A DNA stretch of 20,000 nt from an uncultured virus (IMG/VR IMGVR_UViG_3300010299_003477) (Duplodnaviria; Heunggongvirae; Uroviricota; Caudoviricetes): IMG/VR virus record IMGVR_UViG_3300010299_003477; one strand, 5' to 3'. The position numbers were made by a program, and so were the translations under genes. A model generated the notes under the pieces. The model had not been told where the DNA came from. It was given only the letters and a program-made list of their open reading frames with translations, and searched no databases. Numbering within the stretch: the first letter of the stretch is position 1; each line of letters starts with the position of its first letter. Positions 6,494 through 20,000 of the stretch are shown here, in pieces.

Positions 6494-7063
6494 TTAATCT
6501 CCGTAAAAGTCCACATCAAGTGGAGTAGCTGGTAAAGGTTGCCAAATGGCAACAATAACTTGGTTTGGATCTTTACTTTGGGGATAAATAAAGCCTTTAA
6601 AGCCATATTCTCTTTCACCTAAAGTTGCCACTCTTTCAAAAACGTTTGTTGGGTAATATCTTGGAGTACCAAACTCTTTTTCTCTTATTTCTTTATATTC
6701 ATCAACACGTCTGGATAATCCAAGAGGATCTTTCATAACAGGATACAAATCATGTTTATTAACTGTAACAGTGTAAGCAGAGCCTTGAATTCTTCCAATG
6801 CCAGTATCTTCTTGCCCAAGACGAGTAAAATAAAACACTCTTGGACGATCCCAAGCTCGATATTCAGCTTGACTATACGTTTTTCTACCAGCAGCAGCAA
6901 TTTGAGGATCTAAAACTTCAATATCTGGAGTCGAAGAAACATGATAAAGCTGAACTTGGTCAGGAAGATCTAAAGGATAAGCATTATCTAACTTTGCAAG
7001 CTGCTCATCATCCATTATTTCTTCAGTTAAATATTTGTTCCAGTTTTCAAAAAGTTTTTTCAT
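6494..7063 (-). CDS. Putative ADP-ribosyltransferase-fold protein with MKKLFENW leader
   Basis: Leader MKKLFENWNKYLTEE; LYHVSS..I.VLDP...FYFT...Y.V.V...GFKGFIY pattern resembles H-Y-clade ART folds. Confidence 0.45.
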   Translation of the reverse strand: MKKLFENWNKYLTEEIMDDEQLAKLDNAYPLDLPDQVQLYHVSSTPDIEVLDPQIAAAGRKTYSQAEYRAWDRPRVFYFTRLGQEDTGIGRIQGSAYTVTVNKHDLYPVMKDPLGLSRRVDEYKEIREKEFGTPRYYPTNVFERVATLGEREYGFKGFIYPQSKDPNQVIVAIWQPLPATPLDVDFYGD

Positions 7064-7064
7064 T

Positions 7065-7412
7065 TTAAGTGTTTCCTGTATCTTCTTCTATAAAGAAATT
7101 ATCTATATCGTACTTATCATATTGTGCTGAAAACTCACTATAAGTCAACCCTAAAAATCTTGCAGCATCTATTTTTGATTTAGAAGTTGAAATAGCAAAT
7201 TTTAAAAGTGCTTCTTTCACAATATAATCCGATCTTCTCCAAATGTCAAGTCCATATAACCTGTATTTTAAATTAGCACATGCTAGTTCTAACTTTATAG
7301 CAATTAGATCTTCTAAAGTTAAATTAGAAATTAACACTAACAGATCATTGCTGATCAAATTATTATATGTTAATTTATTAATTATACTTTTATTCTTTAA
7401 TTTGCTAATCAT
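7065..7412 (-). CDS. Fis-like helix-turn-helix protein
   Basis: C-terminal ALLKFAISTSKSKIDAARFLGLTYSEFSAQYDKYDI matches the Fis/NtrC-type HTH pattern (AARxLGI...L..KY.I). Confidence 0.6.
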   Translation of the reverse strand: MISKLKNKSIINKLTYNNLISNDLLVLISNLTLEDLIAIKLELACANLKYRLYGLDIWRRSDYIVKEALLKFAISTSKSKIDAARFLGLTYSEFSAQYDKYDIDNFFIEEDTGNT

Positions 7413-7422
7413 TTGCTAATCA
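7401..7422 (-). repeat. Tandem 11-bp direct repeat TGATTAGCAAA x2
   Basis: Plus strand TTTGCTAATCA at 7401-7411 and 7412-7422, spanning the start codon. Confidence 0.8.
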
Positions 7423-7442
7423 CTACTGATCAATTCTTTAAT

Positions 7443-7471
7443 AATGTAATTTGATTTCAATAATCTGTCAA
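7443..7471 (-). promoter_or_regulatory. Sigma70-like promoter
   Basis: TTGACA (7466-7471) - 17 nt - TACATT (7443-7448) in an intergenic gap, with A-tracts upstream. Confidence 0.7.
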
Positions 7472-7489
7472 GGGACTTTTTTGTAATTT

Positions 7490-8263
7490 TTAATCTAAAC
7501 CAAGATCAATCTCATCTTCTGTAGGTTGCTCCAGATCTTGTTTAGCCATATCATAAGCTTGGTTAGAAGGCTCTTCAATACTTGGATCTAATTCTTTTTC
7601 AAACTTATCAAAATAAAGCTTTACATTTGTAATCAAGTAATCGTAGAATAATTCTTGATCTTCAGCATTAGATAACAACTCATAAGCATCAATTATGTTT
7701 GTTTCGATCTTTTTAAAACACGAATAAGCAATGTTTCTTCCAGTCTCGTCCTGACCTTCAATACCAAATTCTTTTCTTGGATCTTCAGGTTCTTCTTCTT
7801 CCGCTTTTTCAGCATCAGAGCGAATATCAATAAACTTGTCAGATTCTGGATTAGCTTCATCGTCTTCAATTTCAATACTAATCTCTTCTTCTAAATCTTC
7901 TTCAGAGTTGCCTGCTTTTGTATTCATTTCAACAGGAGTTAAAGTATTAATGATAGCTTGGATAACGTGAGCACGGAAAGACTTACGTTGTTCTGGGTCG
8001 GTTGTCATAATTTTGTAATCTGCTTCTAAAACAGGAACAATCTTCTTTAATAGATCTTCCAGAATGTTAATTCCAGTAGACTTATTTGGGGTTGGATTTG
8101 TATCAGAAACCTGAGCTTCCAAGATCAATAAATCGCGAATAATAGAACGTAGTTTTTGCTCTTCTATTTCAATTGCTTTTTGTTCTTGCAATCTTTTTCT
8201 TTTAGTGACTCTGATCATTTCTCTAATGTCTTGTCTCAGTTGTTTCTCTTCTTTTGTAATCAT
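7490..8263 (-). CDS. Acidic hypothetical phage protein
   Basis: 257 aa; ATGA-like overlap with upstream gene; contains KLRSIIRDLLILE leader-like motif. Confidence 0.75.
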   Translation of the reverse strand: MITKEEKQLRQDIREMIRVTKRKRLQEQKAIEIEEQKLRSIIRDLLILEAQVSDTNPTPNKSTGINILEDLLKKIVPVLEADYKIMTTDPEQRKSFRAHVIQAIINTLTPVEMNTKAGNSEEDLEEEISIEIEDDEANPESDKFIDIRSDAEKAEEEEPEDPRKEFGIEGQDETGRNIAYSCFKKIETNIIDAYELLSNAEDQELFYDYLITNVKLYFDKFEKELDPSIEEPSNQAYDMAKQDLEQPTEDEIDLGLD

Positions 8264-9051
8264 TTTAAAATGCCTCTTTTAAGGAAAATGTTATAAATTT
8301 GTTCGCTTATGCAGCCGCAGTCTTCGTCTCTCTTTCCAACAAATGGTTTAGAATACCCAGCAACTGCTCCAGCACCCATAGCTGAAATCTCTTCAATTGG
8401 CTCTGAGGACGCCGGTACAATACCTAGAATGTCCAGAAATTTTTTTGCCATAGCGTCATCTAAAACAAAATCTCGAAGGAGTTCTACAGCCTCTGGGGAG
8501 GTCGAAGCTTTACCTAAAAGATAGCGCATATCTGATGCATGAAATAAACTAAAGTCTTTATTTGTAATAATACTTGGCATGGATTCCTTAAAATCAGAAC
8601 TCATTACTGATTGTATGTATTCTGGGCTATGAACTTCTGGCTGTACTGCTGTTGTTTGTGGATTAAGAAGCATTACGCCTTTTTTCACATATCTATCGGC
8701 ATCTTTCCAACGCTGAACATCAGTTCCTTTGTTGCTTGCTCCAAGGGTAATAAAGTCGCCTTCTTGCAAATCACCTTCAGGTCCAATATAATTATAAGAT
8801 GCACCAACGGGAGAAGCTGATGGTGAAACTTGTATTTCCACATTTGAAAGTCCTGAAGTTAGTTCGTCCCACATGTCTATTGCGTTTTGGGCAGTAATAA
8901 CAGTGCCATCTTCAAGAGCGCGTTGATTTTTTAACGGATTTGAAATTAATATAATAACTTTATCGTTATTTTGTGAATACTGCTCTACCATAGCAAGATG
9001 CCCCCTGTGCGGAGGCTTAAAAGAACCAGGAACAATTGCAATCTTAGCCAT
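8260..9051 (-). CDS. HIGH-motif nucleotidyltransferase (cytidylyltransferase-like; PPAT/NMNAT superfamily)
   Basis: IAIVPGSFKPPHRGH (HxGH) and HASDMR (SxT/SxxR-like) motifs. Confidence 0.8.
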   Translation of the reverse strand: MAKIAIVPGSFKPPHRGHLAMVEQYSQNNDKVIILISNPLKNQRALEDGTVITAQNAIDMWDELTSGLSNVEIQVSPSASPVGASYNYIGPEGDLQEGDFITLGASNKGTDVQRWKDADRYVKKGVMLLNPQTTAVQPEVHSPEYIQSVMSSDFKESMPSIITNKDFSLFHASDMRYLLGKASTSPEAVELLRDFVLDDAMAKKFLDILGIVPASSEPIEEISAMGAGAVAGYSKPFVGKRDEDCGCISEQIYNIFLKRGILK

Positions 9052-9310
9052 CTAAAATTTCTCCATCTGATAGATTGTGCTCTAATATGTTTATTTTTGC
9101 TTCCAATAAATCATTTTTGGTTTCTAATCTTTTGGCTAATTTTCTAACTTCTTTTAAATATTCTTTTGCTGTTTCAATTTGTTGTTTCTCTCCAAAAGTT
9201 TTAGGACGCATTTGTCCAACGAACTCTTGAAGAGAACCAATATAATCAAAAATGTCTTTTTCAACATTTTGATTGTTTAAAAAATCTTTCCAGCTTTTTT
9301 CCACCGACAT
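9044..9310 (-). CDS. Hypothetical coiled-coil protein
   Basis: 88 aa ORF in operon context; heptad-rich C-half. Confidence 0.7.
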   Translation of the reverse strand: MSVEKSWKDFLNNQNVEKDIFDYIGSLQEFVGQMRPKTFGEKQQIETAKEYLKEVRKLAKRLETKNDLLEAKINILEHNLSDGEILDG

Positions 9311-9314
9311 AGCC

Positions 9315-10010
9315 TTATCTTTTAACGATTGACTTTTTTAAAGCTTCACGAACAGCGCGACGAAGTTTTGCTTCACTAAGACTCGGAGGAGCACCAAATT
9401 GGTCTTTTTCTTTGTCACCTTCTTCTGCTTGTTCTGCTGCTTGTTTCATCGGCTCTTCTTTATCACCGTCTTTATCAAGATCAAGATAATCAGGCTTTGC
9501 TTCTTCGTTTAAGTTATCAAAATTCATATTAAAGCCCCAGCTTTCAGCTAAAAGGCTGTTAAGTTCTTTGTTTTTCCATTTTTTGTTAGACATATTGTTT
9601 GCTCCTTTTTGCAAATGTTCAAAATAAATAGTATGCTTAATGCTGTCTTCCCAATCGCGAAAACATAAATTTCCTTGTTCGTAAGCTTCTCTTTCCATTT
9701 CTCTTAAATGTTCATCGTTTTGTGCGTATCCGTCGCCCATCTGACCTACTTGATCAAATTTGCCATTACAATTTTGAGTATGATGAACCAATTCATGAGA
9801 AAGTGAACGCATAACATCTTTAGGATGTCTTCCAGTAATGTAAAGAGTCACGCTTTTTTGTTCTGGATCGTAATACGCTGTTTTGCCAAGAGGGTTTTGA
9901 GCGTTTGTTTGATCTCTTTTCAAGAATAATCTTGGAGGAGATTCAAATCCCATACGCTCTTTTGCAAATGGCATAAATTGCTTTATCATTGGCTTAAGAA
10001 CATCAATCAT
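9315..10010 (-). CDS. Zincin-like (HExxH) protein with acidic C-terminal module
   Basis: HELVHHTQ...EREAYE; C-terminal DYLDLDKDGDKEE (DxDxDG Ca-loop-like); probable internal start at 9593. Confidence 0.65.
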   Translation of the reverse strand: MIDVLKPMIKQFMPFAKERMGFESPPRLFLKRDQTNAQNPLGKTAYYDPEQKSVTLYITGRHPKDVMRSLSHELVHHTQNCNGKFDQVGQMGDGYAQNDEHLREMEREAYEQGNLCFRDWEDSIKHTIYFEHLQKGANNMSNKKWKNKELNSLLAESWGFNMNFDNLNEEAKPDYLDLDKDGDKEEPMKQAAEQAEEGDKEKDQFGAPPSLSEAKLRRAVREALKKSIVKR

Positions 10011-10341
10011 CTAAAAATACCTTTTTTTGTTTATCTGAATACCAAATATATTCTAAATAGTTGTTAAATGGGTCTTTTACATAAGCACCTGTAGTTCCAT
10101 CACGATGTTCTACAATTTCTGCGTTTTCTGGGAAGTCTTTTTTACTATCTATAAGTATTCCAATATGTGCATATGGATACCATTTTTTATCAATAAGAGC
10201 AATATTTGTGTTTTCTACTTTTAATCTTATGTATTTTTGATCTCGAAAAGTTACTTCGCCCTTTAAATGGCTTACATACCATTCTTCCGCGACTTGCAAA
10301 TCATCAACTAATAAGGCTATGTGATCAATTACTGATTTCAT
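10003..10341 (-). CDS. VOC/glyoxalase family protein
   Basis: IDHIALLVDDL..A..WY...L, HIGI, YVKDPFNNYLE motifs. Confidence 0.85.
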   Translation of the reverse strand: MKSVIDHIALLVDDLQVAEEWYVSHLKGEVTFRDQKYIRLKVENTNIALIDKKWYPYAHIGILIDSKKDFPENAEIVEHRDGTTGAYVKDPFNNYLEYIWYSDKQKKVFLDD

Positions 10342-10606
10342 TTTGTTTGCTCTCCGACGCTTTTGAGATTATTCGCAGATTAAAAGTAAATAGTTCTATC
10401 TCGCCTCTAACGGGCTCTTTCATCGGAATAACAGTACAAACAGAAACAAGTCTATTAGATTTGATTTTATTGCTAATATTTGTTATTAAACCATAGTTTA
10501 ATTTCCAACTTTTGTCGATAGGACACCACTTAGACCACTCTACAATATCGCCAATACAAAAATCATCAGAGATTAGCTTGCCGAATGGACTATCGCTTGG
10601 TTCCAT
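10325..10606 (-). CDS. Hypothetical protein (possible SH3/KOW-like barrel)
   Basis: FCIGDIVEW...YGLIT pattern; operon context. Confidence 0.55.
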   Translation of the reverse strand: MEPSDSPFGKLISDDFCIGDIVEWSKWCPIDKSWKLNYGLITNISNKIKSNRLVSVCTVIPMKEPVRGEIELFTFNLRIISKASESKQNEISN

Positions 10607-10612
10607 TAATAT

Positions 10613-10750
10613 TTACCTTTCTTTTAAAATTGATGCTATTAAAGCCAATAAAGTTAAAGCAACAAATTCAAAACCCCAAAGAGCATAACAAATCCAAGTA
10701 ACAACAAGAAAAATTATAACCCTCCAGAACACACCAAATTCAAATAACAT
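10613..10750 (-). CDS. Small membrane protein, 45 aa
   Basis: Below ORF-track cutoff; MLFEFGVFWRVIIFLVVTWICYALWGFEFVALTLLALIASILKER; two hydrophobic segments; TAATG overlap with upstream gene. Confidence 0.7.
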   Translation of the reverse strand: MLFEFGVFWRVIIFLVVTWICYALWGFEFVALTLLALIASILKER

Positions 10751-11043
10751 TAGTTGTAGCCCACATAAAATATTTCTTTTCTGTCTATCATGACTACGTT
10801 GTTTGAAGAAACATAAACCATAACTCTATTTCTTGAATCTAAAGTTTCGTCTATCATAAAACAAGTAGTGCCTCTCGCAACCTTAATTAAGCTACGAGAA
10901 GTTATATCATAACACATTATGTAACCGCTTGAACCTCTTATTATCATTTCTGGAAGAAGTTCTTTATTTTTATCTGGTATTCCAGCTAACTGATTTAAAA
11001 CTCTTTGAAGTTTTTTTGTTATAACTGTATCTTCTAACTTCAT
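10750..11043 (-). CDS. Hypothetical protein
   Basis: 97 aa ORF; CTATTTA motif 4 nt upstream of ATG. Confidence 0.65.
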   Translation of the reverse strand: MKLEDTVITKKLQRVLNQLAGIPDKNKELLPEMIIRGSSGYIMCYDITSRSLIKVARGTTCFMIDETLDSRNRVMVYVSSNNVVMIDRKEIFYVGYN

Positions 11044-11063
11044 ACAATAAATAGAAGCTTAAA

Positions 11064-11300
11064 TTAACTTTCTTTATACTTTTTTAAAGCATCAAGTACA
11101 ACACGAGCAATCTTGCGACTATCAGCCGCTGAAGGCGAAGTTGAAGAAGTTGGATCGTAAGCTGCCAGCCAGTCCCCCACTTCTGAAAGAGGAACAAGAA
11201 CCGGAATAATAATACATTCTTCTGAAATGCTACTTCCGTCCGTGTCTTCAGTAGAAATGGTTCCTTCTACAACTTGAGAATAATCTGCGTTCATGTGCAT
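11064..11300 (-). CDS. Hypothetical protein
   Basis: 78 aa ORF, GGAG SD, follows putative virion genes. Confidence 0.65.
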   Translation of the reverse strand: MHMNADYSQVVEGTISTEDTDGSSISEECIIIPVLVPLSEVGDWLAAYDPTSSTSPSAADSRKIARVVLDALKKYKES

Positions 11301-11302
11301 TT

Positions 11303-12076
11303 TTAAGCTCCTGCTGCAATAGTTGTTGAGACATGGCTCAACTTAAATTTAGTTTGATCGCCTGCGGTGATTGTCACATTGTTCGCCCCAATGCCTAAAC
11401 CAACCATTAACTGCACGTCTGTAGGGACAGGAAGACCTGTAGTGTAAACGCCAGCAGAGCGAGCGGCGGCTTGGAGGTTCGCGTCGGTGTTGTCGAAAAT
11501 CATAAATTCACCACCACCAAGCCCGTCGCCACCGCGTATCGTAGTACAAACGCCATAGATCCCGTTATTCGGACCGTTTGAAGATTCTGTGTGTCGTGTA
11601 AATACACCATAAAGGGGATTGGTCACTGTCGAAAAACGCCCCATCGTACCGCCAGTCCCACACATCAAGCCGGTGTCCGTTGATGCAGCATCAAGGGCTG
11701 CACCGAAAACACCTTTCCATCTGAACGGGCATACGTCAGGGGAGCCCAGGGGAGGTACTTCCATGCGATAGGTCGACACAAGTAGGTCCAATGACGTGAC
11801 CTGTGTGCCATCAATTTCCAAGTTCTTGTACCAACGTGGTGCTCTAACAGTAGTACCGTAAAACCAGTTATAGTCACCAGAGCCAACAGGCAGTGCGTTC
11901 CATGTTAGTGTATGCCAAGCACCAGAAAAAGTAATTGTATTAACAAGACTGTCTGGATCATAAAGCGTCCATGAACCATCTGTTAAATCTATTATTGTTA
12001 GGGTCTTATCATATTCAGAACCACCAGCAGCAGGAGTTAGTGTCCAAACGCCATTCGTTAAAGTCCAGTCAGCCAT
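11303..12076 (-). CDS. Putative virion structural/receptor-binding protein
   Basis: Gly/Thr/Trp-rich, low charge, beta-rich; coupled (TAATG) to upstream fibre-like gene; C-terminal two thirds GC-elevated. Confidence 0.5.
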   Translation of the reverse strand: MADWTLTNGVWTLTPAAGGSEYDKTLTIIDLTDGSWTLYDPDSLVNTITFSGAWHTLTWNALPVGSGDYNWFYGTTVRAPRWYKNLEIDGTQVTSLDLLVSTYRMEVPPLGSPDVCPFRWKGVFGAALDAASTDTGLMCGTGGTMGRFSTVTNPLYGVFTRHTESSNGPNNGIYGVCTTIRGGDGLGGGEFMIFDNTDANLQAAARSAGVYTTGLPVPTDVQLMVGLGIGANNVTITAGDQTKFKLSHVSTTIAAGA

Positions 12077-13074
12077 TATCTATCACCTACAATAAGCCAA
12101 CCTAAAGCACCGCCAGCAATAATGGTAACTGCGCTCCAAGCGCTTTGAATTTTAGCTTCAGTTCCTGAGTCAATTGTTTCAGAACCAGACGGCTGTATAA
12201 CAATATTATTTGTTGCAGAGTTTCCATCGGCATCTTTAAATACAAAGATTCTTCCTCCACCAGCATCAGCTAAAGAAGGCAAGCTTGCTGTAACATGAGT
12301 GCTTGAACCAGAAATTAAATAATAATGATCTGATGTTTGTGCTGTAAAAGAAGCGCTATGCACTATAACTGCTCTACGTAGACCAGCCCGTGTTCTTAAG
12401 CCTCCATCAACATCAAGAGTATCCGTTGGATCAACTGTATTAATACCAACTAAATTTGCTGAAGAGGACACAAAAATAGTATCGTCTGCTACAGAAACAT
12501 CTTGATCGTTTCCAACAAAAAGAAAACCTTTGTCTAGGTTTGGTGTTGCGTTGGTACGACCAGCGCCGCCAACTTTAATTTGCCCAGCAGAAGCATCGAC
12601 GCGCATAACTTGCCCAATGTTCTGCAATAAATTAAATGAACCAGTTGGAGCTAATTTTGTAAAGCTACCAGATGTTCCACCAGAGCCTGTTTGAACGTAA
12701 AGTGTGTCACCAAGGCTATAGCCTGCTGTGTTTACATTTTTTAAACTACCAAGAGTAATGATTTGAACTTCTGCTCCATTATTTGCGTTAGAAGCTGCAA
12801 CACCAAAAGCTGGCATTTTATTTGGATCATCACATGCAGCAAGAGCAACAGTAGGCGTTTGTCCAGAAGCACCAGTAACAAAAACAACTTGACCTTTTGT
12901 TATTGAATCTCCCTCTGCATTTATCGCAGTAAAAGTAACTGCTGCATTTGCATAATGAGAATAAAGAGTTTCAATTCTTAAGTTTTCTTCTCCTATGCTG
13001 TAAGCCTCATCAGAGTATGGAGTTAAAACACTTGTTCCTGTTACAAAACTATTGCTGTTGATATTATAAGCCAT
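12076..13074 (-). CDS. Putative fibre/capsid-decoration protein
   Basis: G/S/T/A-rich; ITKGQVVFV...VALA...PAFGVA...V.IITLG resembles capsid-cement/decoration domains; VGINT..PT.TLDV.G fibre repeat; C-terminal TASLPS...IFVFKD..G.....I.IQPSGSETID domain common in phage fibres. Confidence 0.65.
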   Translation of the reverse strand: MAYNINSNSFVTGTSVLTPYSDEAYSIGEENLRIETLYSHYANAAVTFTAINAEGDSITKGQVVFVTGASGQTPTVALAACDDPNKMPAFGVAASNANNGAEVQIITLGSLKNVNTAGYSLGDTLYVQTGSGGTSGSFTKLAPTGSFNLLQNIGQVMRVDASAGQIKVGGAGRTNATPNLDKGFLFVGNDQDVSVADDTIFVSSSANLVGINTVDPTDTLDVDGGLRTRAGLRRAVIVHSASFTAQTSDHYYLISGSSTHVTASLPSLADAGGGRIFVFKDADGNSATNNIVIQPSGSETIDSGTEAKIQSAWSAVTIIAGGALGWLIVGDR

Positions 13075-13356
13075 TTAAATTTGCTCACCTTTATGTATTA
13101 ATAAACGCAAAGCGCCGTTACCTTTGATTACTCGATGGTAAACATAAGCTGGTATGTTATAAGTAGTGCCTTCTTTTAATAAAACAGGTAGTTCGTTATC
13201 CATCTGTAAAAACCAATTGTTTGATTCTAAAACTTTTATTTTTCTATTTTCACGATCTTGGTGCCAAATTAGCTCTTCAGAGTTTGTAGTTTCTTTAAAT
13301 TCTCGTAAAAATAGTTGATTACCAACTTTTTGTTCTGTAAATGGATAATCAGACAT
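13075..13356 (-). CDS. Cupin-like phage protein
   Basis: WHQD.E...W.LQMDNELP..L..G....IP..VYHRVIKG cupin two-motif pattern; ATG 13356 preferred over GTG 13368. Confidence 0.6.
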   Translation of the reverse strand: MSDYPFTEQKVGNQLFLREFKETTNSEELIWHQDRENRKIKVLESNNWFLQMDNELPVLLKEGTTYNIPAYVYHRVIKGNGALRLLIHKGEQI

Positions 13357-14485
13357 TTTGTTTTCCACTCATGTTAAATGGTCTTTCTAAATCTACAATG
13401 TTTATCTCTGCGGGCTCATCAGTTAGTTTAAATTTTCTAAAAATGAAATCTAAATATGTCACAAATCTTGAAATCTCAGTTTCAACTATTTGTTTCATTT
13501 CTTGCTCTAACGCCTCTTCGGCTTCTAAGATGGCTATATCGTAATCCTCATTTTCTTCTATATCTTCATCAGAATCAACATCAATCAATTTTTTATAATA
13601 TTCAAATACTTTTGGTGCTAAAGACTCTCTCATTCTTTGAATGTAATATTGTCTCTGTATAATATAAATTGGCATTAAAATTTCAGAGATAATCTCTCTT
13701 TTTATATTTTCTTTATTGTTGATGTAATTTTCAACTGATTTAATTTTTGTATAAAATGCATTCCTAATTTGGCGGAAAAAAGAATCTGAATTTATTTTGT
13801 CATTCTGTATTGTATAGATACTTTTCATATCTTCTGTAAATTTTTGCGAGTCTTCTAGAAAATTATTAAAATTGGTGCTTTTAATTGATAAAGTTTCTCC
13901 AAATCCAACAAGAATAAAATCTGAATTTTTATACCCGACTAAGACAGAGCCGTCTTTCCTGCCTGTGAAAACTAATCCATGTATTTTTTGTTTTTCACTT
14001 GCATTGTTTTCTAAATATGTTGAAAATGCAAGAGCTTGTTCGCTTGTGAATGGCTTATCTGTTCTGTTGAGCAAACTTGTTTCGTTACAAATCATTTCTA
14101 ACTCTTCGTCTATAAATAAATCATTTTGTTCTAATTGCTGTTTTAAATTATGATTTCTTCCATATACTTTTTTTGCCTCTTTATAATCAAAAATCGCATA
14201 TTTATTTAAATTTTTAACTTCAAATTTAAAAACAAAATCACCATATTCATATAAGAGATCATTTGAATTTCTAACGGTATAAATACCACGACCATAAAGG
14301 TCGCCCTCGCCTGGAATAAACCCTTTTTCTCTTAACGTTTCTATTCTATTTAAAATTTCGTTTTTTTGAAGACTTTCATTTCCTCTAGAGCCTTTACCGA
14401 AAGCATGATAAACAATAGCTTTATTTTCAAATGGTATAATCTCTTCAGAGATAAACTGTCGCCAATTTTCAAATAGAAGCTTCAT
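13349..14485 (-). CDS. Putative PARP-like ADP-ribosyltransferase with MKLLFENW leader
   Basis: VYH...GFIPGEGDLYGRGIYT...YG.FVFKFEV resembles the H...G.YG.GIY donor-site signature of H-Y-E ARTs; very AT-rich. Confidence 0.55.
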   Translation of the reverse strand: MKLLFENWRQFISEEIIPFENKAIVYHAFGKGSRGNESLQKNEILNRIETLREKGFIPGEGDLYGRGIYTVRNSNDLLYEYGDFVFKFEVKNLNKYAIFDYKEAKKVYGRNHNLKQQLEQNDLFIDEELEMICNETSLLNRTDKPFTSEQALAFSTYLENNASEKQKIHGLVFTGRKDGSVLVGYKNSDFILVGFGETLSIKSTNFNNFLEDSQKFTEDMKSIYTIQNDKINSDSFFRQIRNAFYTKIKSVENYINNKENIKREIISEILMPIYIIQRQYYIQRMRESLAPKVFEYYKKLIDVDSDEDIEENEDYDIAILEAEEALEQEMKQIVETEISRFVTYLDFIFRKFKLTDEPAEINIVDLERPFNMSGKQNV

Positions 14486-14496
14486 TGTGTCATACC

Positions 14497-15078
14497 TTAC
14501 CAGAATCTACCGGGGACATTTGTACCAAAGTCTTTATGAGCCCTGCAAGCCCAATAACCGGGTTTTGTTTTATCTTTTTTCTGATCGCACTTGTGCCTTG
14601 CAGCAAAACTTTTACGAGCTTCTGGGTCGTTCCAGTTGCCTTTTAGACCACCTTTTGCGTCACCATAAGTAACTTTCTTGACATTACCTGTTTTTGGATC
14701 GCGAACATAAACTTTATATTTCTTTCCTGAACCAGTATTTTTGGTTGGCTTGTTTAGTGGCGGGTCTTTTTTCTTGGACTCTTCTTCTAAAACTTCATCG
14801 TACATTGGAAAATCAAGCGGGACTCTTTCACCTTCAAATATCGCCCACTCACCTAAATCGGTATGCTTGAGGGTATGAAGATCAATTAACTGAGGATTAA
14901 TTTCTTTATTCTCGTACATCTTTCTTGCTTCGTGAATAACACGAAAATAGTTATCAGACCCAATACGATAAATATTTCTTGAAAAAGGAATCTTATTTTC
15001 AAGATGGTAGTCTACCATTTCAATAGCTTCGGTTTCTTCTTTAATTATTTGCTTTAATTTAGCTTCTGTTATTTTCAT
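14497..15078 (-). CDS. Phage protein with MKITEAKLKQIIKEE leader and basic Cys/His C-terminal domain
   Basis: KKYKVYVRDPKTGNVKKVTYG...RKSFAARHKC...PGYWACR module recognised from T4-like/large phage hypotheticals. Confidence 0.7.
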   Translation of the reverse strand: MKITEAKLKQIIKEETEAIEMVDYHLENKIPFSRNIYRIGSDNYFRVIHEARKMYENKEINPQLIDLHTLKHTDLGEWAIFEGERVPLDFPMYDEVLEEESKKKDPPLNKPTKNTGSGKKYKVYVRDPKTGNVKKVTYGDAKGGLKGNWNDPEARKSFAARHKCDQKKDKTKPGYWACRAHKDFGTNVPGRFW

Positions 15079-16100
15079 GGTTGGTTTCCTTTGGATACGT
15101 TTAAAACTTCCATAAAATGTTCGTATGCTGTGCCGTAGTATTCAGAAGATTGAAACAATCTTCGTAGTACTCGTGGCAGCGACTCACAGAAGGTGAGATC
15201 AAGGCTCGTCAGGTTCGTACAGCCCGCCAGACCGTCTACGTTCTCCAGCGACGTGCACCAGTAAGCGTCGAGGGTCGTCAGATTCGTACAGCCCGCCAGA
15301 CCGTCTACGTTCTGCAGTGACCTACACCGGCTGAGGTCGAGGTCCGTCAGGTTCGTAAGCCCCTGGAGCCCGTCTACGTTCTGAAGCGACTTGCAATTGC
15401 TGAGGTCGAGACTCGTCAGGTTCGTAAACCCCTGGAGTGCATCTACGTTCTGAAGCGACTTGTTCCCGGTGAGGAAGAGGCTCGTCAAGTTCGTAAGCCC
15501 CTGGAGCCCGTCTACGTTCTGCAGCGACGAGCACCTTTCGAGGTTGAGGTCCGTCAGGTTCGTAAGCCCCTGGAGCCCATTTACGTTCTGCAGCGACGAG
15601 CACCATCCGAGGTCGAGGCTCGTCAGGCTCGTGCAGCCCTTTAGCCCGTCTACGTTCTCCAGCGAATAGCAATGGTTGATGTCGAGGCTCGTCAGGCTCG
15701 TAAGCCCCTGGAGTCCGTCCACATTACGCAGCGAATTGCAATAGCTGAGGTCTATTTTTGTTGTAACGTTTAGTTCACGTAAGCCTGACAAGAAATTAAC
15801 ATTTTCTTCTTCTATATCTGACTCTGCAAACTGATCAATTACTTCTAGCTTTTTTAAGATTTCGCTATTTCCTGCTGGATCGCTGGCTTTAATTACGTCT
15901 TTGTACAGTAAATAAACCTCTACTCCTTGTGCAAACTCCCAAGGATCATTTGAAGATAGAAGTCTTATTATTTTTTGTGCCGGCGTAAGTTCTTCCTCTT
16001 CTTCATAATCATAATCATCATCATATTCGTCTTCTTCAATAAGAAGCTTAACAACTTCTTCTTTGATGATCTGATTCAATTTTGATTTAGTTATTTTCAT
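15075..16100 (-). CDS. Leucine-rich repeat protein (8 x 23-aa units) with MKITK leader
   Basis: Repeats LQNVDGLxGxTNLTxLxLxxCxS; ATGA overlaps at both ends. Confidence 0.92.
   Translation of the reverse strand: MKITKSKLNQIIKEEVVKLLIEEDEYDDDYDYEEEEELTPAQKIIRLLSSNDPWEFAQGVEVYLLYKDVIKASDPAGNSEILKKLEVIDQFAESDIEEENVNFLSGLRELNVTTKIDLSYCNSLRNVDGLQGLTSLTSLDINHCYSLENVDGLKGCTSLTSLDLGWCSSLQNVNGLQGLTNLTDLNLERCSSLQNVDGLQGLTNLTSLFLTGNKSLQNVDALQGFTNLTSLDLSNCKSLQNVDGLQGLTNLTDLDLSRCRSLQNVDGLAGCTNLTTLDAYWCTSLENVDGLAGCTNLTSLDLTFCESLPRVLRRLFQSSEYYGTAYEHFMEVLNVSKGNQP
15176..15752 (-). repeat. GC-rich 69-bp coding tandem repeat (LRR cassette)
   Basis: Recurring CCCGTCTACGTTCTGCAGCGAC core every 69 nt; 36/60 GC at 15481-15540 vs 18/60 at 16021-16080. 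Confidence 0.9.
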
Positions 16101-16954
16101 CCTTTTTTACCTGATTTTGATTTCTTGCCCCAATTTCCACGCTCTCCACAAGCTGATGGTGTTGGTCTGCAAGAAGGATATTTAGATCTTTTTTCATCTC
16201 CAGACCTACCGCATGGAGAGCACTTCTTTTTGCCTGTCTTTTCGTCCTTTCTGCAAGTGTTGCAATCAACCCAGCCACCTTTCTTTCCAGGTGCTCCTTT
16301 ACGACCAAACCAATCGCGAAGAGAAGTTTCAGATGATGGCTTCTTAGTTAGTTTTCTTTTTTTTTCATTTAGCTCTTTTTGTATTTCTTCGTCAATAAGA
16401 GAACTAAGAAAATCTGCCTGAGAGCCATGCTTTTTAACAGAATCTTCAAGTTGACCAATAATTTCTTTTATTTTCTTAATATCTTGGTCGGACATTTCTT
16501 TGCTTTCAAAAACTTTATTTATTTCTTCATCAATTATTTGATCGAGATGCTCAAAATCAATAGATTCTTTTTTGGAATTGCCCCAATTTTTAGCACCTAC
16601 TTTACGACATTTAACAAGTGCCCCTGAAGCGTATGCAGATGGCCAAACTTTATAACGAGATTTAACTTTATGATAACAAGCATCTTTCTTTCCTGAAGAA
16701 TTCTTTTTCTTTTTTCTATCAGCTACCTTGCGAGCACGTTTCTTGCCCTTTTGTTGCTTTTTCTTTTTCTCGTTTATTTCTTCTTCCTCAAGAGTGGCGG
16801 TGCCTCCTGCTTTTTTATAAAGTTGAGATGCTTCTTCTTTTGAGATCATGCCAAGTCGAAGCATTTTTTTAATAGCTTCTCTTTGCCTTTGTTTTCTTTC
16901 CTCGTTAGAACGAGTAATTTCTTCTTCGTTAATATCACCATATAAATCTTGCAT
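16097..16954 (-). CDS. Lys-rich, Cys-containing phage protein
   Basis: KKDACYHKVKSRYKVWPSAYASGALVKCRKVGAKNWG and LRDWF...GGWVDC...YPSCRP modules recognised from T4-like phage hypotheticals; separated by acidic I.xEE spacers. Confidence 0.75.
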   Translation of the reverse strand: MQDLYGDINEEEITRSNEERKQRQREAIKKMLRLGMISKEEASQLYKKAGGTATLEEEEINEKKKKQQKGKKRARKVADRKKKKNSSGKKDACYHKVKSRYKVWPSAYASGALVKCRKVGAKNWGNSKKESIDFEHLDQIIDEEINKVFESKEMSDQDIKKIKEIIGQLEDSVKKHGSQADFLSSLIDEEIQKELNEKKRKLTKKPSSETSLRDWFGRKGAPGKKGGWVDCNTCRKDEKTGKKKCSPCGRSGDEKRSKYPSCRPTPSACGERGNWGKKSKSGKKG

Positions 16955-16962
16955 AGTTTTGG

Positions 16963-16997
16963 TATCCTTGCTTTAAATAGTTAGCAGTCAAAGGACA
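16963..16997 (-). promoter_or_regulatory. ACTATTTA motif within potential SD-sequestering hairpin
   Basis: mRNA sense TGTCCTT (16991-16997) ... ACTATTTA (16974-16981) ... AAGGATA (16963-16969), ATG at 16954. Confidence 0.45.
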
Positions 16998-17010
16998 ATA
17001 CAAAAAAATA

Positions 17011-17943
17011 TTATCCTTTTAAAACTTCCATAAACTGCTCGTATGCTGTGCCACTGCTATCAGATTCAAACCTTTCTTGTAATTCTGGTGGTAGCGATGA
17101 GCACTCTATGAGGGAGAGGCTCGTCAGGTTCGTGCAGCCCTTCAACCCATCTACGTTCTGCAGCGAATTGCAGAAGCCGAGGTTGAGGTACATCAGGTTC
17201 GTGCATTCCTTTAGCCCGTCTACGTTCTCCAGCGACTCGCAGAAGCTGAGGTAGAGGTACATCAGGTTCGTGCATTCCTTTAGCCCGTCCACGTTCTGCA
17301 GCGACTTGCACCTGTTGAGGTTGAGCCAATTCAAGTTCGTACAGCCCGCCAGCCCGTCTACGTTCTGCAGCAACTCGCATTTGTAGAGGTTGAGGTCCGT
17401 CAGGTTCGTGAGTCCTTGGAGCCCGTCTACGTTCTCCAGCGACGTGCACCCGTTGAGTTTGAGGCTCGTCAGGTTCTTGCAAAACCTTAAAAAATCAACG
17501 TTTGTGATAAAATCATTTGCAATATTAAGTCTCTCAATCTGATCAAGCATATTTTTAACACGATCAGATTTTTCAGCAAAATAGTTTAAAATCATCCCAA
17601 GTTGTTGCGGAACAATTTCTTGCGGAAGATCAAATCCTTGTGTAGTTATTGAATTACTTTTTGAGTCGAAAACGAAATGACTTGCAATTGTATCGATGAG
17701 TTGTTGATATTCGAGTTGTGAAAATCCAGGTTGTGGATCTTCAAGGGCGTCAAGAATTGAAAGACCTTGCTGTACATTAGCAGAATCATCTGAAATTAGA
17801 AGCTTGATTATTTTTTGTGCGTAAGTAAGTTCTTCTTCTTCGTAATCATAATCATCATAATCATCATATTCGTCTTGTTCAACAAGAAGCTTAACAACTT
17901 CTTCTTTGATTATTTGCTTTAGTTTAGTTTTGGTGATTTTCAT
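17011..17943 (-). CDS. Leucine-rich repeat protein (5 full + 1 hybrid unit) with MKITK leader
   Basis: Same leader and C-cap as paralogues but a different N-terminal domain; GC-rich cassette ~17095-17480. Confidence 0.92.
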   Translation of the reverse strand: MKITKTKLKQIIKEEVVKLLVEQDEYDDYDDYDYEEEELTYAQKIIKLLISDDSANVQQGLSILDALEDPQPGFSQLEYQQLIDTIASHFVFDSKSNSITTQGFDLPQEIVPQQLGMILNYFAEKSDRVKNMLDQIERLNIANDFITNVDFLRFCKNLTSLKLNGCTSLENVDGLQGLTNLTDLNLYKCELLQNVDGLAGCTNLNWLNLNRCKSLQNVDGLKECTNLMYLYLSFCESLENVDGLKECTNLMYLNLGFCNSLQNVDGLKGCTNLTSLSLIECSSLPPELQERFESDSSGTAYEQFMEVLKG

Positions 17944-18890
17944 GGTTGGTTTCCTTTAGATGCATTTAAAGCTTTCATAAACTGTTCGTATGCTGTGCCG
18001 CTGCTATCAGTTCCAAAATATTTTTGCAATTTTATTGGCAGCGACTTGCACCCTTCGAGGCTGAGGCTTATCAGATTCGTGCAGTCCTCCAGACCGTCTA
18101 CGTTCTGCAACGACTCGCACCTGTAGAGGTCGAGTTCCGTCAGGTTCGTGCATTCCTTTAACCCGTCTACGTTCTCCAGCGACTCGCACCCTTCGAGGGT
18201 GAGGTGCGTCAGGTTCGTGCATTCCTTTAGCCCGTCTACGTTCTGCAGCGACTTGCACCCTTGGAGGTCGAGGGTCGTCAGACTCGCACAGCCCCCCAGC
18301 CCATCTACGTTCTGCAGCTTATCGCACCCGTTGAGATAGAGGGTCGTCAGGTTCGAGCAGCCCTTCAGCGCGTCTACGTTCTCCAGCGACTTACATTCAC
18401 TGAGGTCGAGCCACGTCAGGTTCGTAAGCCCCTCCAGCCCGTCTACGTTCTCCAGCGAGTTGCAGAAGCCGAGGTCGAGCCTCCACAGGTTCGTAAGCCC
18501 CTGGAGTCCGTCCACGTTCTGCAGTGATTTGCACCCTTCGAGGATGATTTTTTCTGTAACGTTTAGAACACTTAAGCCCGACAAGAAATTAACGTTTTGT
18601 ATGTCTGGCGACCTTGCAAACTGATCAATCACTCTTAATTTTTCTAAGATCTGATTATTTCCTGCTGGATCGCTGGCTTCAATATCGTCTTTGAAAAGTA
18701 AATAAACCTCTAATCCTTGTGCAAAAGTGCCAGGATCAGGTGAAGATAGAAGTCTGATTATTTTTTGTGCGTAAGTAAGTTCTTCTTCCTCTTCTTCGTA
18801 ATCATAATCATCATATTCGTCTTGTTCAATAAGAAGCTTAACTACTTCTTCTTTGATGATTTGCTTTAAAGTTGCTTTAGTGATTTTCAT
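17940..18890 (-). CDS. Leucine-rich repeat protein (7 units) with MKITK leader
   Basis: 23-aa LRRs; GC-rich cassette ~18037-18543; ATGA overlaps. Confidence 0.92.
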   Translation of the reverse strand: MKITKATLKQIIKEEVVKLLIEQDEYDDYDYEEEEEELTYAQKIIRLLSSPDPGTFAQGLEVYLLFKDDIEASDPAGNNQILEKLRVIDQFARSPDIQNVNFLSGLSVLNVTEKIILEGCKSLQNVDGLQGLTNLWRLDLGFCNSLENVDGLEGLTNLTWLDLSECKSLENVDALKGCSNLTTLYLNGCDKLQNVDGLGGCASLTTLDLQGCKSLQNVDGLKECTNLTHLTLEGCESLENVDGLKECTNLTELDLYRCESLQNVDGLEDCTNLISLSLEGCKSLPIKLQKYFGTDSSGTAYEQFMKALNASKGNQP

Positions 18891-19786
18891 GGTTGGTTTC
18901 CTTTGGATGCATTTAAAGCTTTCATAAACTGTTCGTATGCTGTGCCGATGTGCTCAAAAGAATGAAAAGATCTTTGCAGTGCTCGCGGCAGCGACTCGCA
19001 CCCGTTGAGGAAGAGGCTCGTCAGATTCGTGCAGCCCTTCAGCGCGTCTACGTTCTGCAGCGACGTGCACCCGCTAAGGTCGAGGCTTTTCAGGTTCGTA
19101 AGCCCCTGGAGCCCGCCTACGTTCTGCAGCGACTCGCATCTGTTGAGGTAGAGGGACGCCAGATTCGTACAGCCCTCCAGCCCGTCTATGTTCTGTAGCG
19201 ACGTGCACCAGCTGAGGTCGAGTTCCGTCAGGTTCGTGCATTCTTTTAGCCCGTCTACGTTCTGCAGCGACTCGCACCCGCTGAGGTGGAGCCAATCCAG
19301 ATTCATAAGCCCCTGGAGCCCGTCTACGTTCTGCAGCGAATCGCACCTGCTGAGGTCGAGTTCCGTCAGGTTCGTGAGCCTTTGGGGCTCGTCTACGTTC
19401 TGGAACCCGTCTACGTTCTTCAGCGACTCGCACCCGCTGAGGTCTATTTCTTCTGTGACGTTTAGATCACTTAAGACTGACAAGGAACCAACGTCTGGTA
19501 TATCTGACCCTGCAAACTGATCAATCACTCTTAGCTTTTCTAAGATTTGGCTATTTTCTGTTTGAGCGTTAGCTTCAATATCGTCTTTGACCAAAGAATA
19601 AATCTCTACTCCTTGTGCAAAAGTGTCAGGATCTTTTGAAGATAGAAATCTGATTATTTTTTGTGCCGGCGTAAGTTCTTCTTCTTCGTAATCATAATCA
19701 TCATAATCATATTCGTCTTGCTCAACAAGAAGCTTAACAACTTCTTCTTTGATTATTTGCTTTAAAGTTGATTTGGTTATTTTCAT
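18887..19786 (-). CDS. Leucine-rich repeat protein (6 units) with MKITK leader
   Basis: 23-aa LRRs, first with a 6-aa insertion; GC-rich cassette ~18980-19443. Confidence 0.92.
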   Translation of the reverse strand: MKITKSTLKQIIKEEVVKLLVEQDEYDYDDYDYEEEELTPAQKIIRFLSSKDPDTFAQGVEIYSLVKDDIEANAQTENSQILEKLRVIDQFAGSDIPDVGSLSVLSDLNVTEEIDLSGCESLKNVDGFQNVDEPQRLTNLTELDLSRCDSLQNVDGLQGLMNLDWLHLSGCESLQNVDGLKECTNLTELDLSWCTSLQNIDGLEGCTNLASLYLNRCESLQNVGGLQGLTNLKSLDLSGCTSLQNVDALKGCTNLTSLFLNGCESLPRALQRSFHSFEHIGTAYEQFMKALNASKGNQP

Positions 19787-20000
19787 AATGAGTTCCTTTT
19801 AGATGCTTTTAGGGCTTCCATAAACTTCTCGTGTGCTGTGCCACTGCTATCAGTTGCAAAATATTCTTGCAATTCTGGTGGCAGCGACGAACACCAGCTG
19901 AGTTCGAGAATCGTGAGCTTTGTAAGCCCCTGGAGTGCATCTACGTTCTGCAGCGACTCGCAACCGGCGAGGTTCAGGGTCGTCAGGTTCGTAAGCCCTT
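19783..20000 (-). CDS. Leucine-rich repeat protein, C-terminal part (5' end outside window)
   Basis: Absent from ORF track; hand translation ...GLTNLTTLNLAGCESLQNVDALQGLTKLTILELSWCSSLPPELQEYFATDSSGTAHEKFMEALKASKRNSL*; ATGA overlap with next gene. Confidence 0.9.
   Translation of the reverse strand, partial: GLTNLTTLNLAGCESLQNVDALQGLTKLTILELSWCSSLPPELQEYFATDSSGTAHEKFMEALKASKRNSL

Follow-up and report, generated by a model that had tools for sequence, protein, structure and literature searches.

GC-rich cores within AT-rich LRR genes

The LRR genes at one end of the 20,000-nt stretch analysed here (the window), which belongs to a 50.8-kb record of an uncultured Caudoviricetes virus (IMGVR_UViG_3300010299_003477), raise the question of how sharply bounded, GC-rich repeat cores came to lie inside AT-rich phage genes. 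The features concerned are listed below by their positions in the window.

14497..15078, minus strand: 193-aa non-LRR gene with the same MKIT..KQIIKEE leader as the LRR genes
15075..16100, minus strand: LRR gene A, 341 aa ORF (Pfam LRR_4, E 1.2e-24), with leader MKITK..KQIIKEE, acidic linker, AT-rich N-cap (type A), eight canonical 23-aa units and AT-rich C-cap
15177..15752, minus strand: GC-rich core of gene A (GC 0.583, GC3 0.79; flanks GC 0.338, GC3 0.24), with a 69-nt tandem array at 15194-15752
16097..16954, minus strand: unrelated 285-aa gene (GC3 0.23) that splits the LRR array; nt 16565-16708 show 75-83% identity to T4-like cyanophage genes
17011..17943, minus strand: LRR gene B, 310 aa, N-cap type B (Pfam LRR_4, E 6.1e-13)
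17101..17481, minus strand: GC-rich core of gene B (GC 0.554, GC3 0.87; flank GC3 0.21), the junctions bridged by run contigs
17940..18890, minus strand: LRR gene C, 316 aa, N-cap type A (Pfam LRR_4, E 8.5e-20), modelled with AlphaFold2
18039..18548, minus strand: GC-rich core of gene C (GC 0.582, GC3 0.82; flank GC3 0.26)
18887..19786, minus strand: LRR gene D, 299 aa, N-cap type A (Pfam LRR_4, E 2.2e-19)
18986..19444, minus strand: GC-rich core of gene D (GC 0.599, GC3 0.84; flank GC3 0.27)
19783..20000, minus strand: 3' part of a fifth LRR gene, truncated at the window boundary (record 8761-9813, 350 aa), with an AT-rich C-cap and then a GC-rich core from 19882 (GC 0.571)

All four complete genes matched LRR_4 above the gathering score. 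Seven paralogues were present in the 50.8-kb record and 11 in three stretches of one 161-kb contig, in agreement with the amplification proposed in the first-pass annotation.

Core bounds were set from maximum-likelihood change points in GC3. GC3 rose from 0.19-0.27 to 0.79-0.87 within 1-2 codons at either edge of the array of canonical 23-residue repeats. This held for the four LRR genes that are complete in the window and for the seven of the record, with Fisher p values for core versus rest of 1e-24 to 1e-32. The counts were 152/192 in the core versus 36/150 in the rest of gene A (p 3.6e-25), 110/127 versus 39/184 in gene B (p 7.9e-32), 139/170 versus 38/147 in gene C (p 2.6e-24) and 128/153 versus 39/147 in gene D (p 2.2e-24). 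Sliding GC was 0.51-0.60 in the cores and 0.30-0.40 in their surroundings. The abrupt switch described in the first-pass annotation was thus recovered, with change points within 1-6 nt of the edges that it gave, and its hand counts were exact (36/60 GC at 15481-15540 and 18/60 at 16021-16080).

GC1 and GC2 were nearly flat across the switch, which rules out amino-acid composition as its cause. The codons themselves changed as had been claimed, from AT-rich outside to GC-rich inside: Leu was encoded by CTG or CTC in 123/147 cases in the cores versus 4/65 in the flanks, and Thr by ACG in 46/52 versus 2/27. The cores therefore deviate at synonymous sites from the resident phage genome, in which the other coding-strand ORFs of at least 100 aa (n=44) had a mean GC3 of 0.26; the highest 60-codon GC3 in these 44 ORFs was 0.57 (then 0.47), compared with 0.85-0.95 in the seven LRR genes. 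Metagenome loci yielded 95 LRR-type ORFs, 80 of them with the family C-cap, and all 80 showed the switch, with core GC3 of 0.76-0.91 and flank GC3 of 0.17-0.43, the upper flank value being that of a single truncated ORF with 54 flank codons.

Module layout and repeat codons

The genes share a general layout of a short conserved leader helix, a disordered acidic linker, a helical N-cap, four to nine canonical 23-residue LRR units and a helical C-cap, and in each gene GC-richness was confined to the canonical units. An in-frame graft of the repeats onto a phage leader had been proposed; the GC-rich block is indeed in frame, but it is separated from the leader by an N-cap domain that is AT-rich and includes one degenerate, likewise AT-rich LRR unit, so that the graft would not have been made directly onto the leader. 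Among 58 distinct full-length genes, 29 were classed as type B, 25 as type A and four as neither, and two different 5' junction types occur in the family; three of the four remaining genes had a type-B-like junction and one a shifted type-A-like junction. Gene B has its 5' junction within a hybrid unit, in which AT-rich NVDFLRF is followed by GC-rich C.NLT. The 3' junction was the same in 58/58 full-length genes, falling between SL and P.

Codons at framework positions were nearly fixed and position-specific among 205 distinct 69-nt units. Leu was CTG at column 1 and CTC at column 16 (189/205 each), whilst Val at column 4 was the A-ending GTA (156/205) and Leu at column 10 was CTT (68/81). This pattern points to shared ancestry of the units and not to a general pull to G/C.

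A GC-rich homologue outside the phages

No match to the cores was found among GenBank phages. Horizontal transfer calls for a close relative at the nucleotide level whose genome matches in composition; one was found in a single donor-like lineage, represented by L075, a non-phage contig of 1,442 bp and 67% GC that carries a uniformly GC-rich LRR homologue (GC3 0.85 in the N part, 0.91 in the core and 0.81 in the C part). Core C and L075 shared 79.8% nt identity over 421 nt (E 3e-106), compared with 65-71% at most for other GC-rich LRR loci, and at framework positions 8/8 L075 units had the codons most common in the phage, GTA among them. Where L075 and its best phage partner had the same residue, the codon was kept in 91/118 cases in the repeats, 7/28 in the N-cap and 2/7 in the C-cap. 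The two N-caps are homologous at the protein level (24/63 identical, 38%; E 7e-10), but their codons differ.

Framework synonymous mismatch was 0.025 among L075 units, 0.141 between L075 and phage units and 0.212 among phage units, so that the phage units radiate from a centre close to the L075 type. Control values against the phage units were 0.308 for GC-rich Chthoniobacter, 0.408 for other Verrucomicrobia-like loci and 0.80 for AT-rich Cloacimonadales. The L075 type is known from two short contigs (1.3-1.4 kb), L075 being the sole GC-rich relative at the DNA level; the second, from an independent assembly, encodes a 310-aa protein identical save for one unit fewer. A search of 185,579 species genomes recovered no L075-like gene, the best match having 59% aa identity. 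The low diversity among L075 units would also be compatible with recent movement in the opposite direction, from phage to bacterium.

Verrucomicrobial and Cloacimonadales LRR proteins share the same 23-residue unit class (SLQNVDGL..LT.L.L..C) at 49-59% aa identity; they differ from the phage proteins in having codons that follow their own genomes, other N- and C-terminal domains and no leader. A Cloacimonadales MAG of 31% GC encoded this class (59% aa identity) at a GC3 of 0.12-0.44. As an AT-rich bacterium writes the same repeats in AT-rich codons, high GC is not required by the protein, and in cells the composition of this repeat follows the genome.

Origin of the repeat block

Taken together, these results make it probable that resident phage LRR genes received a GC-rich repeat block by grafting, that amplification then gave at least 11 paralogues, and that the repeats diversified on their concave binding face. 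The phage lineage would already have had AT-rich, leader-tagged LRR genes, into which canonical repeats of a GC-rich bacterial homologue resembling that of L075 may have recombined as a block, in register, leaving sharp junctions inside the first unit and directly after the last. The AT-rich N-cap between leader and block, and its homology to the L075 N-cap at the protein level only, indicate that the block replaced repeats in an LRR gene that was already resident. The block would then have spread and duplicated among paralogues of two N-cap types, its units diversifying almost only at concave-face positions while synonymous sites decayed only slightly toward A/T. On this history the GC contrast would be the un-ameliorated mark of a recent domain-level transfer and not a protein requirement. 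Departures from the majority codon (358 S>W, 140 S>S and 23 W>S) were close to the expectation from synonymous opportunity and so do not demonstrate ongoing amelioration.

Lawrence and Ochman reportedly proposed the amelioration model for compositionally atypical, horizontally acquired DNA. The present block resembles such DNA in having a foreign-genome composition unlike that of the resident genome, but differs in being a sub-genic, in-frame segment, bounded within 1-2 codons and present in every paralogue; moreover, the other domains of the recipient genes are homologous to those of the donor yet fully ameliorated.

Capture from a GC-rich cellular donor, possibly the host, had been suggested from the window. 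The foreign, GC-rich origin is supported by L075, which alone outside the phage family is closely related at the nucleotide level, and by the lack of GenBank phage matches. The host is a candidate donor only; the gene adjoining the L075 homologue points weakly to Myxococcota, and the nearest cultured relatives of the phage infect low-GC Flavobacterium and Microcystis. It had also been anticipated that cores would match GC-rich bacteria at the nucleotide level and flanks only phages; the cores matched L075 and no GenBank phage, and the flanking N-cap is homologous to that of L075 at the protein level only.

The direction of transfer is read mainly from composition. A reverse or third-party transfer, in which the unit came from elsewhere or from the phage, the bacterium of L075 received only the repeat block and the cause of the GC-richness in the phage is left open, appears unlikely but is the most credible of the alternatives. 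It would account for the near-uniformity of the L075 units, as after recent expansion from one or few units, and for the rarity of the L075 type (two contigs versus 80 phage ORFs); GTA, too, is odd in a 67%-GC genome, so that L075 may itself be a recipient. Against it, core GC3 (0.79-0.91) agrees with the L075 flanks (0.81-0.85) and not with the much lower phage background, a composition that a phage origin does not explain.

Native repeats could also have been driven to G/C by GC-biased gene conversion, through frequent inter-repeat recombination with biased mismatch repair. The GC-rich part does coincide exactly with the repeated, recombination-prone part, and core history is decoupled from that of the flanks, an observation that counts for the graft as well, core synonymous mismatch remaining at 0.16-0.22 while N-flank mismatch ranged from 0.09 to 0.42; differences between near-identical strains were also clustered in the cores (38/76 successive gaps of 6 nt or less). 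Such conversion is nevertheless improbable, given the A- and T-ending codons kept at columns 4 and 10, the uniformly GC-rich homologue with the same codons outside the phage, and units that are not homogenised (nt identity 0.744 within and 0.735 between genes, with longest shared exact tracts of 22-48 nt). Paralogue cores had no exact tract above 48 nt in common, which lends no support to the continual refreshment by recombination envisaged earlier.

Selection on nucleotides or codons within the repeats, whether for translation speed during folding, mRNA structure or an overlapping reading frame, is more improbable still. Each core is traversed by long ORFs in alternative frames and antisense, but alternative frames without stops are to be expected where repeats are GC-rich, and L075 has them as well; the cores had no Rfam family match, and the AT-rich form of the same repeat class in Cloacimonadales speaks against such selection. 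In 15 near-identical collinear pairs, synonymous differences were not rarer in cores (32 in 7,092 nt) than in flanks (16 in 7,221 nt): extra synonymous constraint is absent from the cores. Finally, the joining of phage flanks to another organism's repeats in assembly can be practically dismissed, despite the poor handling of 69-nt repeats by short-read assemblers and odd joints in some run contigs, because the same in-frame architecture recurs in dozens of independent contigs, near-identical sequence was found in 18 runs from at least 12 studies (2014 to 2025) and Logan contigs (four runs, four studies) bridge the AT/GC junctions with zero differing letters.

Predicted structure and hypervariable positions

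The AlphaFold2 model of gene C (pLDDT 87.9) is an LRR solenoid with strands at residues 114-116, 137-139 and so on to 275-277, every 23 residues, strand residues 137-139 corresponding to unit columns 15-17. Columns 15, 17, 19, 20 and 22 were hypervariable (entropy 2.4-3.4 bits, versus 0-0.6 for most framework columns) and in the model are located on the concave strand and immediately beyond it. The LRR genes are accordingly predicted to form a repertoire of hypervariable protein binders. The top Foldseek matches were InlA, InlB and InlH (E about 1e-12), the best sequence matches were the plant NLRs RPP1 and Roq1, and repebodies and designed LRRs were among the PDB sequence matches. The phage proteins share the fold and concave binding face of internalin-type binders and of Roco/NLR LRR domains, but are phage-encoded, lack a signal peptide, anchor or effector domain, and have their own N-cap and C-cap and a Cys-containing 23-residue unit.

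A diversity-generating retroelement would confine variation to adenine-templated positions and have a template repeat and a reverse transcriptase close by. It is unlikely here, as the codons of the hypervariable columns differ at each of their three nucleotides, with changes to any base. No reverse transcriptase was found among the Pfam/PHROG matches of the scanned ORFs.

A leader shared with unrelated proteins

The leader of the LRR genes also stands at the N-terminus of a GNAT acetyltransferase, of a YrbL-like protein and of at least six proteins without known function, whereas the Flavobacterium phage immuto homologue of the 193-aa gene lacks it. Its presence on unrelated cargo suggests, by analogy, that these proteins may enter the capsid and reach the host as T4 internal proteins do, a precedent described in PMC3012670. 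As in the T-even system (IPI, IPII, IPIII and Alt, with their capsid targeting sequence), a short conserved N-terminal tag stands on otherwise unrelated, fast-evolving proteins clustered in a variable locus; it differs in having no sequence similarity to the T4 tag and in that the cargo is an LRR solenoid in many paralogues.

In T4 the prohead protease cleaves the tag at (L/I)xE motifs; IKE and LVE/LIE in the present leader are candidate sites of this kind. The PF03420 profile (gp21-type prohead protease) had no match in the 50.8-kb record, and control genomes were equally silent. Against capsid loading, no upstream T4-type late promoter motif was found.

Implications

The locus probably represents an unusually clean, datable domain-level horizontal transfer into a phage, in which the foreign block is marked by its codons and the homologous neighbouring domains serve as an internal clock. 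It also belongs to a large and widely distributed family of hypervariable binders, carried by phages of estuaries, fresh water and the sea, with records from 2014 to 2025, on a scaffold that already resembles engineered repeat binders. More speculatively, a GC-rich bacterial lineage and AT-rich phages might share the 69-nt unit as a common pool of cassettes. Each phage genome would then encode an antibody-like set of at least 11 leader-tagged binders, carried in the capsid and injected so as to neutralise proteins of the host; the repeats might derive from a cellular LRR sensor and act as decoys or inhibitors of that receptor class. If the binders are indeed packaged and injected, they would constitute a new class of phage counter-defence or host-takeover proteins.

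Composition of the LRR genes

Four complete LRR genes, referred to here as A to D, and the end of a fifth were found in the window. All genes of interest at this locus lie on the window minus strand, and the IMG/VR virus record as a whole (IMGVR_UViG_3300010299_003477) carries seven LRR genes.

LRR genes of the window (ORFs)
15075–16100, minus strand: LRR gene A, complete
17011–17943, minus strand: LRR gene B, complete
17940–18890, minus strand: LRR gene C, complete
18887–19786, minus strand: LRR gene D, complete
From 19783, minus strand: fifth LRR gene, 3′ end only

The first-pass annotation had claimed an abrupt switch in GC content within each gene, and this was borne out, both of its hand counts being exact. 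Sliding GC was 0.51–0.60 in four blocks (the cores) and 0.30–0.40 between them, and GC3 was 0.79–0.87 inside the cores compared with 0.19–0.27 in the AT-rich remainder, or flanks (Fisher p 2e-24 to 8e-32). GC1 and GC2 were flat across the core edges, the shift falling almost wholly at third codon positions. A change-point fit placed the core limits at 15177–15752, 17101–17481, 18039–18548 and 18986–19444, Tandem Repeats Finder independently detected 69-nt arrays at the same places, and codon-by-codon reading revealed that the switch was completed within one or two codons. The GC-rich block comprised exactly the canonical 23-residue (69 nt) repeat units; AT-rich sequence encoded the two caps and the first, degenerate unit (NVDFLRF or NVNFLSGL..LNVTEKI). 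The 44 other ORFs of the record had a mean GC3 of 0.26, with a best 60-codon window of 0.57 as against 0.85–0.95 in the LRR genes. No Rfam match was obtained over 14400–20000.

An assembly artefact was ruled out as the source of this architecture by 18 runs from at least 12 studies (2014–2025; estuary, oyster, freshwater and marine), which contained 62–82 % of the 31-mers of the stretch, and by contigs of four runs from four studies that crossed the junctions without a differing letter.

Protein architecture and occurrence of the family

The modules were encoded in the order leader (MKITK..LKQIIKEE..), acidic Asp/Glu/Tyr linker, N-cap, four to nine canonical units and C-cap (SLP..LQ..F....GTAYEQFMKALNASKGNQP). 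Two types of AT-rich N-cap (A and B) were found, both starting AQKII+LL.S.D....QG. The AlphaFold2 model of the gene C product (pLDDT 87.9) comprised a low-confidence leader helix (residues 5–22), a disordered linker (23–35), a confident helical N-cap, eight strands at 23-residue spacing and a C-terminal helix. Its nearest solved folds were internalins, and the best PDB sequence matches were LRR domains of plant NLRs.

The LRR genes were arranged in tandem with overlapping stop and start codons and had many paralogues, 11 of them in three examined stretches of a 161-kb metagenome contig carrying the same LRR genes. A protein search gave 483 matches, in which all full-length relatives were metagenomic and named cellular matches covered the repeats alone (approximately 50 % identity). 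Scanning of JGI metagenome contigs yielded 64 loci with 95 LRR ORFs, of which 80 possessed the family C-cap. The GC contrast was present in all 80 (core GC3 0.76–0.91, flanks 0.17–0.43, the upper flank limit being due to a single truncated ORF) and in two IMG/VR fragments.

When 15075–20000 was compared by blastn with 50,697 GenBank phage records, neither the cores nor the LRR flanks gave a match; the sole match, at 16565–16708, lay inside a non-LRR gene. A tblastn search of the same records with gene C recovered four weak Listeria-phage matches alone. A single-protein scan of IMG/VR gave no match, and an alignment-based scan gave mostly leader-only matches. Among the papers listed in literature searches on phage LRR genes, none dealt with this family.

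Repeat units and hypervariable positions

Extraction in register gave 372 units, 205 of them distinct. Framework positions were nearly fixed in both residue and codon, and the codon was specific to the column (residue position within the unit): Leu was CTG at columns 1 and 13 and CTC at columns 16 and 18, Thr was ACG at columns 11 and 14 and ACC at column 15, Val at column 4 was GTA in 156 of the 205 units, and CTT was kept at column 10. A general pull towards G/C would not retain GTA or the column-10 CTT, and this pattern was inherited from one ancestral unit.

Columns 15, 17, 19, 20 and 22 were hypervariable (entropy 2.4–3.4 bits, 13–18 different residues), columns 8 and 14 varied less and most framework columns showed 0–0.6 bits. 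In the gene C model, columns 15–17 form the concave strand (e.g. residues 137–139), with columns 19–22 following it. Amino-acid mismatch was 0.825 at the five hypervariable columns compared with a synonymous mismatch of 0.212 at framework columns, a pattern characteristic of binders whose diversification centres on the binding face. A diversity-generating retroelement was rejected, as the variation was not adenine-restricted.

Exact tracts common to paralogues were 22–48 nt long, and unit identity was 0.744 within genes and 0.735 between them; recent conversion between paralogues was rejected given the absence of any identical tract above 48 nt. Synonymous differences in 15 near-identical collinear gene pairs (32 in 7,092 core nt, 16 in 7,221 flank nt) were, if anything, commoner in cores than in flanks, and these pairs gave no sign that cores are protected or actively kept GC-rich.

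The window differed from the record at 13 bases. Seven of these formed two tight patches in LRR cores (17142–17149 and 19340–19348), which look like strain-level patch variation within repeats; the second alters two hypervariable codons (W to R, K to D). The others were at 1170, 1173, 5254, 8890, 10888 and 16604.

Cellular homologues of the repeats

Among matches of the four cores to loci outside the family (blastn), one stood out. L075, a non-phage metagenome contig (1,442 bp, 67 % GC), matched the gene C core at 79.8 % over 421 nt (E 3e-106), whereas other GC-rich LRR loci reached 65–71 % at most.

L075 encodes a 333–356-aa LRR protein without the phage leader (one unit shorter in an independent assembly). 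Because GC3 was high in all three parts of the gene (N part 0.85, core 0.91, C part 0.81), the gene has an even composition that fits its contig. All eight L075 units carried the phage majority codons at framework positions, GTA included, the differences from phage units falling at hypervariable codons. Its N-terminal domain was homologous to the type-B N-cap (24/63 identical, E 7e-10). At identical residues, L075 and phage shared the codon in 91/118 cases in the repeats, 7/28 in the N-cap and 2/7 in the C-cap. An irregular unit, LG.GTFTALQS.GALGVLKSLPNLT, was common to L075, paralogue P2 (record 7595–8764) and phage protein P0016, and appears to be a further shared derived feature linking them.

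Framework synonymous mismatch was 0.025 for pairs of L075 units, 0.141 for L075–phage pairs and 0.212 for pairs of phage units, and the L075 type accordingly lies close to where the radiation of the phage units starts. GC-richness alone is insufficient to account for this closeness, since mismatch was 0.308 for Chthoniobacter, 0.408 for other Verrucomicrobia-like loci, 0.779 for a 46 %-GC BRCT-LRR protein and 0.80 for Cloacimonadales. In 185,579 species genomes, 12 relatives were detected (29–63 % identity by best tblastn segment; strongest match 59 %), none of them an L075-like gene. Repeat GC3 followed the genome, at 0.12–0.44 in a 31 %-GC Cloacimonadales MAG and 0.76–0.96 in Chthoniobacter; as cellular repeats take the composition of their own genome, the LRR protein has no need of GC-rich codons.

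Three further metagenome contigs (L076–L078, 44–47 % GC) encode 1,176–1,413-aa proteins, with BRCT in the longer form, that combine the N-cap motif K.LL..RD....QGLELL and LRRs of the same class as the phage genes with LED repeats. Because they carry both, the N-cap and LRR module is probably an old cellular architecture.

Beside the L075 gene lay a single neighbour, the terminal part of an acyltransferase gene in the opposite orientation. A 72-aa fragment of it had no Pfam or NCBIfam match, and Atlas matches were weak (acyltransferase/DAGAT families). The neighbour was 74–76 % identical to three 289-aa proteins that combine PF03982 with PF01553 domains, and one 90 % cluster of these proteins includes a Myxococcota MAG protein, a weak lead suggesting that the L075 organism may be a GC-rich bacterium with a Myxococcota link. 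The query gave no match in 301 Verrucomicrobiota genomes or in the source genomes of four other loci (L088, L089, L090 and L096). Such a bacterium is an unlikely host for a 36 %-GC phage, and none of these results supports the suggestion that the donor was the host.

Origin of the GC-rich block

These comparisons point to borrowed repeats, that is, a GC-rich block foreign to the phage with a close relative in L075, and disfavour other explanations. Transfer in the reverse direction or from a third party, for which it can be said that direction rests on composition and that one donor-like lineage alone is known, is improbable. Selection at the nucleotide level within the repeats could be argued from the long ORFs (72–116 aa) that an ORF scan found through every core.

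Alternative-frame and antisense ORFs
Window 18261–18527 and 19188–19520, plus strand
Record 8344–8691, 11374–11589, 12216–12530 and 13990–14274

These ORFs also recur in L075 and are read as by-products of stop-poor GC-rich repeats; selection of this kind is further disfavoured by the AT-rich cellular version of the repeats and by the unreduced synonymous change in cores. The A- and T-ending codons kept in the framework, the units that are not homogenized and the existence of L075 all speak against GC-biased conversion as the builder of the cores. Translational selection was rejected, as the boundary is intragenic and an AT-rich bacterium writes the same repeats in AT-rich codons.

For borrowed repeats, N-caps and repeats appear to differ in age: between L075 and phage, synonymous sites were saturated in the N-cap and 86 % identical in the repeats. 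Within the phage family, core divergence (0.16–0.22) was independent of N-flank divergence (0.09–0.42). In 58 distinct full-length genes, the type B junction fell at column 10 of a hybrid unit (29 genes plus three close variants) and the type A junction at approximately column 16 (25 genes plus one shifted variant); the 3′ junction was within two codons of SL|P in all 58. The simplest account would be that the phage already possessed leader-tagged, AT-rich LRR genes, that the GC-rich block recombined into them in register (on two or more occasions, or on one with later movement), and that genes and units multiplied afterwards. The graft proposed in the first-pass annotation would survive as the in-frame joining of a GC-rich block, with a resident AT-rich LRR gene with its N-cap, not a bare leader, as recipient.

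Units diverged from their inferred ancestor by approximately 0.1 per synonymous framework site. As flanks of paralogues with the same N-cap type diverged to the same order, the block would date from about the same time as the paralogue expansion, too recently to have ameliorated. Continual refreshment of the cores is possible and not needed, since neither core protection nor very recent exchange between paralogues was seen.

The phage, its leaders and the role of the LRR proteins

The window corresponds to bases 9596–29595, read on the minus strand, of the 50,848-bp record (36 % GC, estimated 12 % complete). The 161-kb contig carries a large terminase and a portal elsewhere, and the nearest cultured relatives of the terminase were Flavobacterium phage immuto (48.7 %), Microcystis phage Mel-JY01 (43 %) and T4-type gp17 (approximately 33 %); these genes mark the element as a large tailed phage with a distant relationship to the T4 group. 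Genes for sugar modification are numerous in window 1–12000 and record 29500–42000 (several GT4 glycosyltransferases, a nucleotide-sugar epimerase, a dTDP-4-dehydrorhamnose epimerase, an aminotransferase and a cytidylyltransferase), and a PIN-PhoH fusion and an HNH endonuclease are present as well. The LRR array is interrupted by one gene:

16097–16954, minus strand: Lys-rich, Cys-rich 285-aa gene matching phrog_727

Over bases 16565–16708 it shared 75–83 % identity with genes in 135 records of T4-like cyanophages, some of these genes carrying the annotation 'structural protein'.

The 15–20-residue leader also heads a 193-aa protein (14497–15078), whose phage immuto homologue lacks it, and, on related contigs, a GNAT acetyltransferase, a YrbL-like protein and several proteins of unknown kind; it may be a portable tag. 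Another N-terminal leader, M..(L/I)(F/Y)(E/D).WR.F(L/I).E, was common to three unrelated proteins without family matches and may be a second such tag at this locus.

Proteins with the second leader
Window 13349–14485, minus strand
Record 5946–6500, plus strand
Record 6543–7598, plus strand

One short leader on unrelated cargo proteins resembles the T4 capsid targeting sequence, by which diverse anti-restriction internal proteins enter T4 heads (PMC3012670). By this analogy, leader-tagged proteins might be loaded into the capsid, a reading that we hold tentatively. A search of the 50.8-kb record for the prohead protease (PF03420) gave no match, control genomes being equally silent, and PADLOC gave none for the LRR and cargo proteins. 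The T4 late promoter motif is TATAAATA; none was found upstream of the LRR genes, and its four matches were all on the non-coding strand (as many in 7/200 shuffles).

As regards function, the family combines an LRR solenoid fold and a hypervariable concave face with tandem paralogues and a wide and persistent occurrence, and the LRR proteins are likely to be fast-evolving binders of host or competitor proteins.
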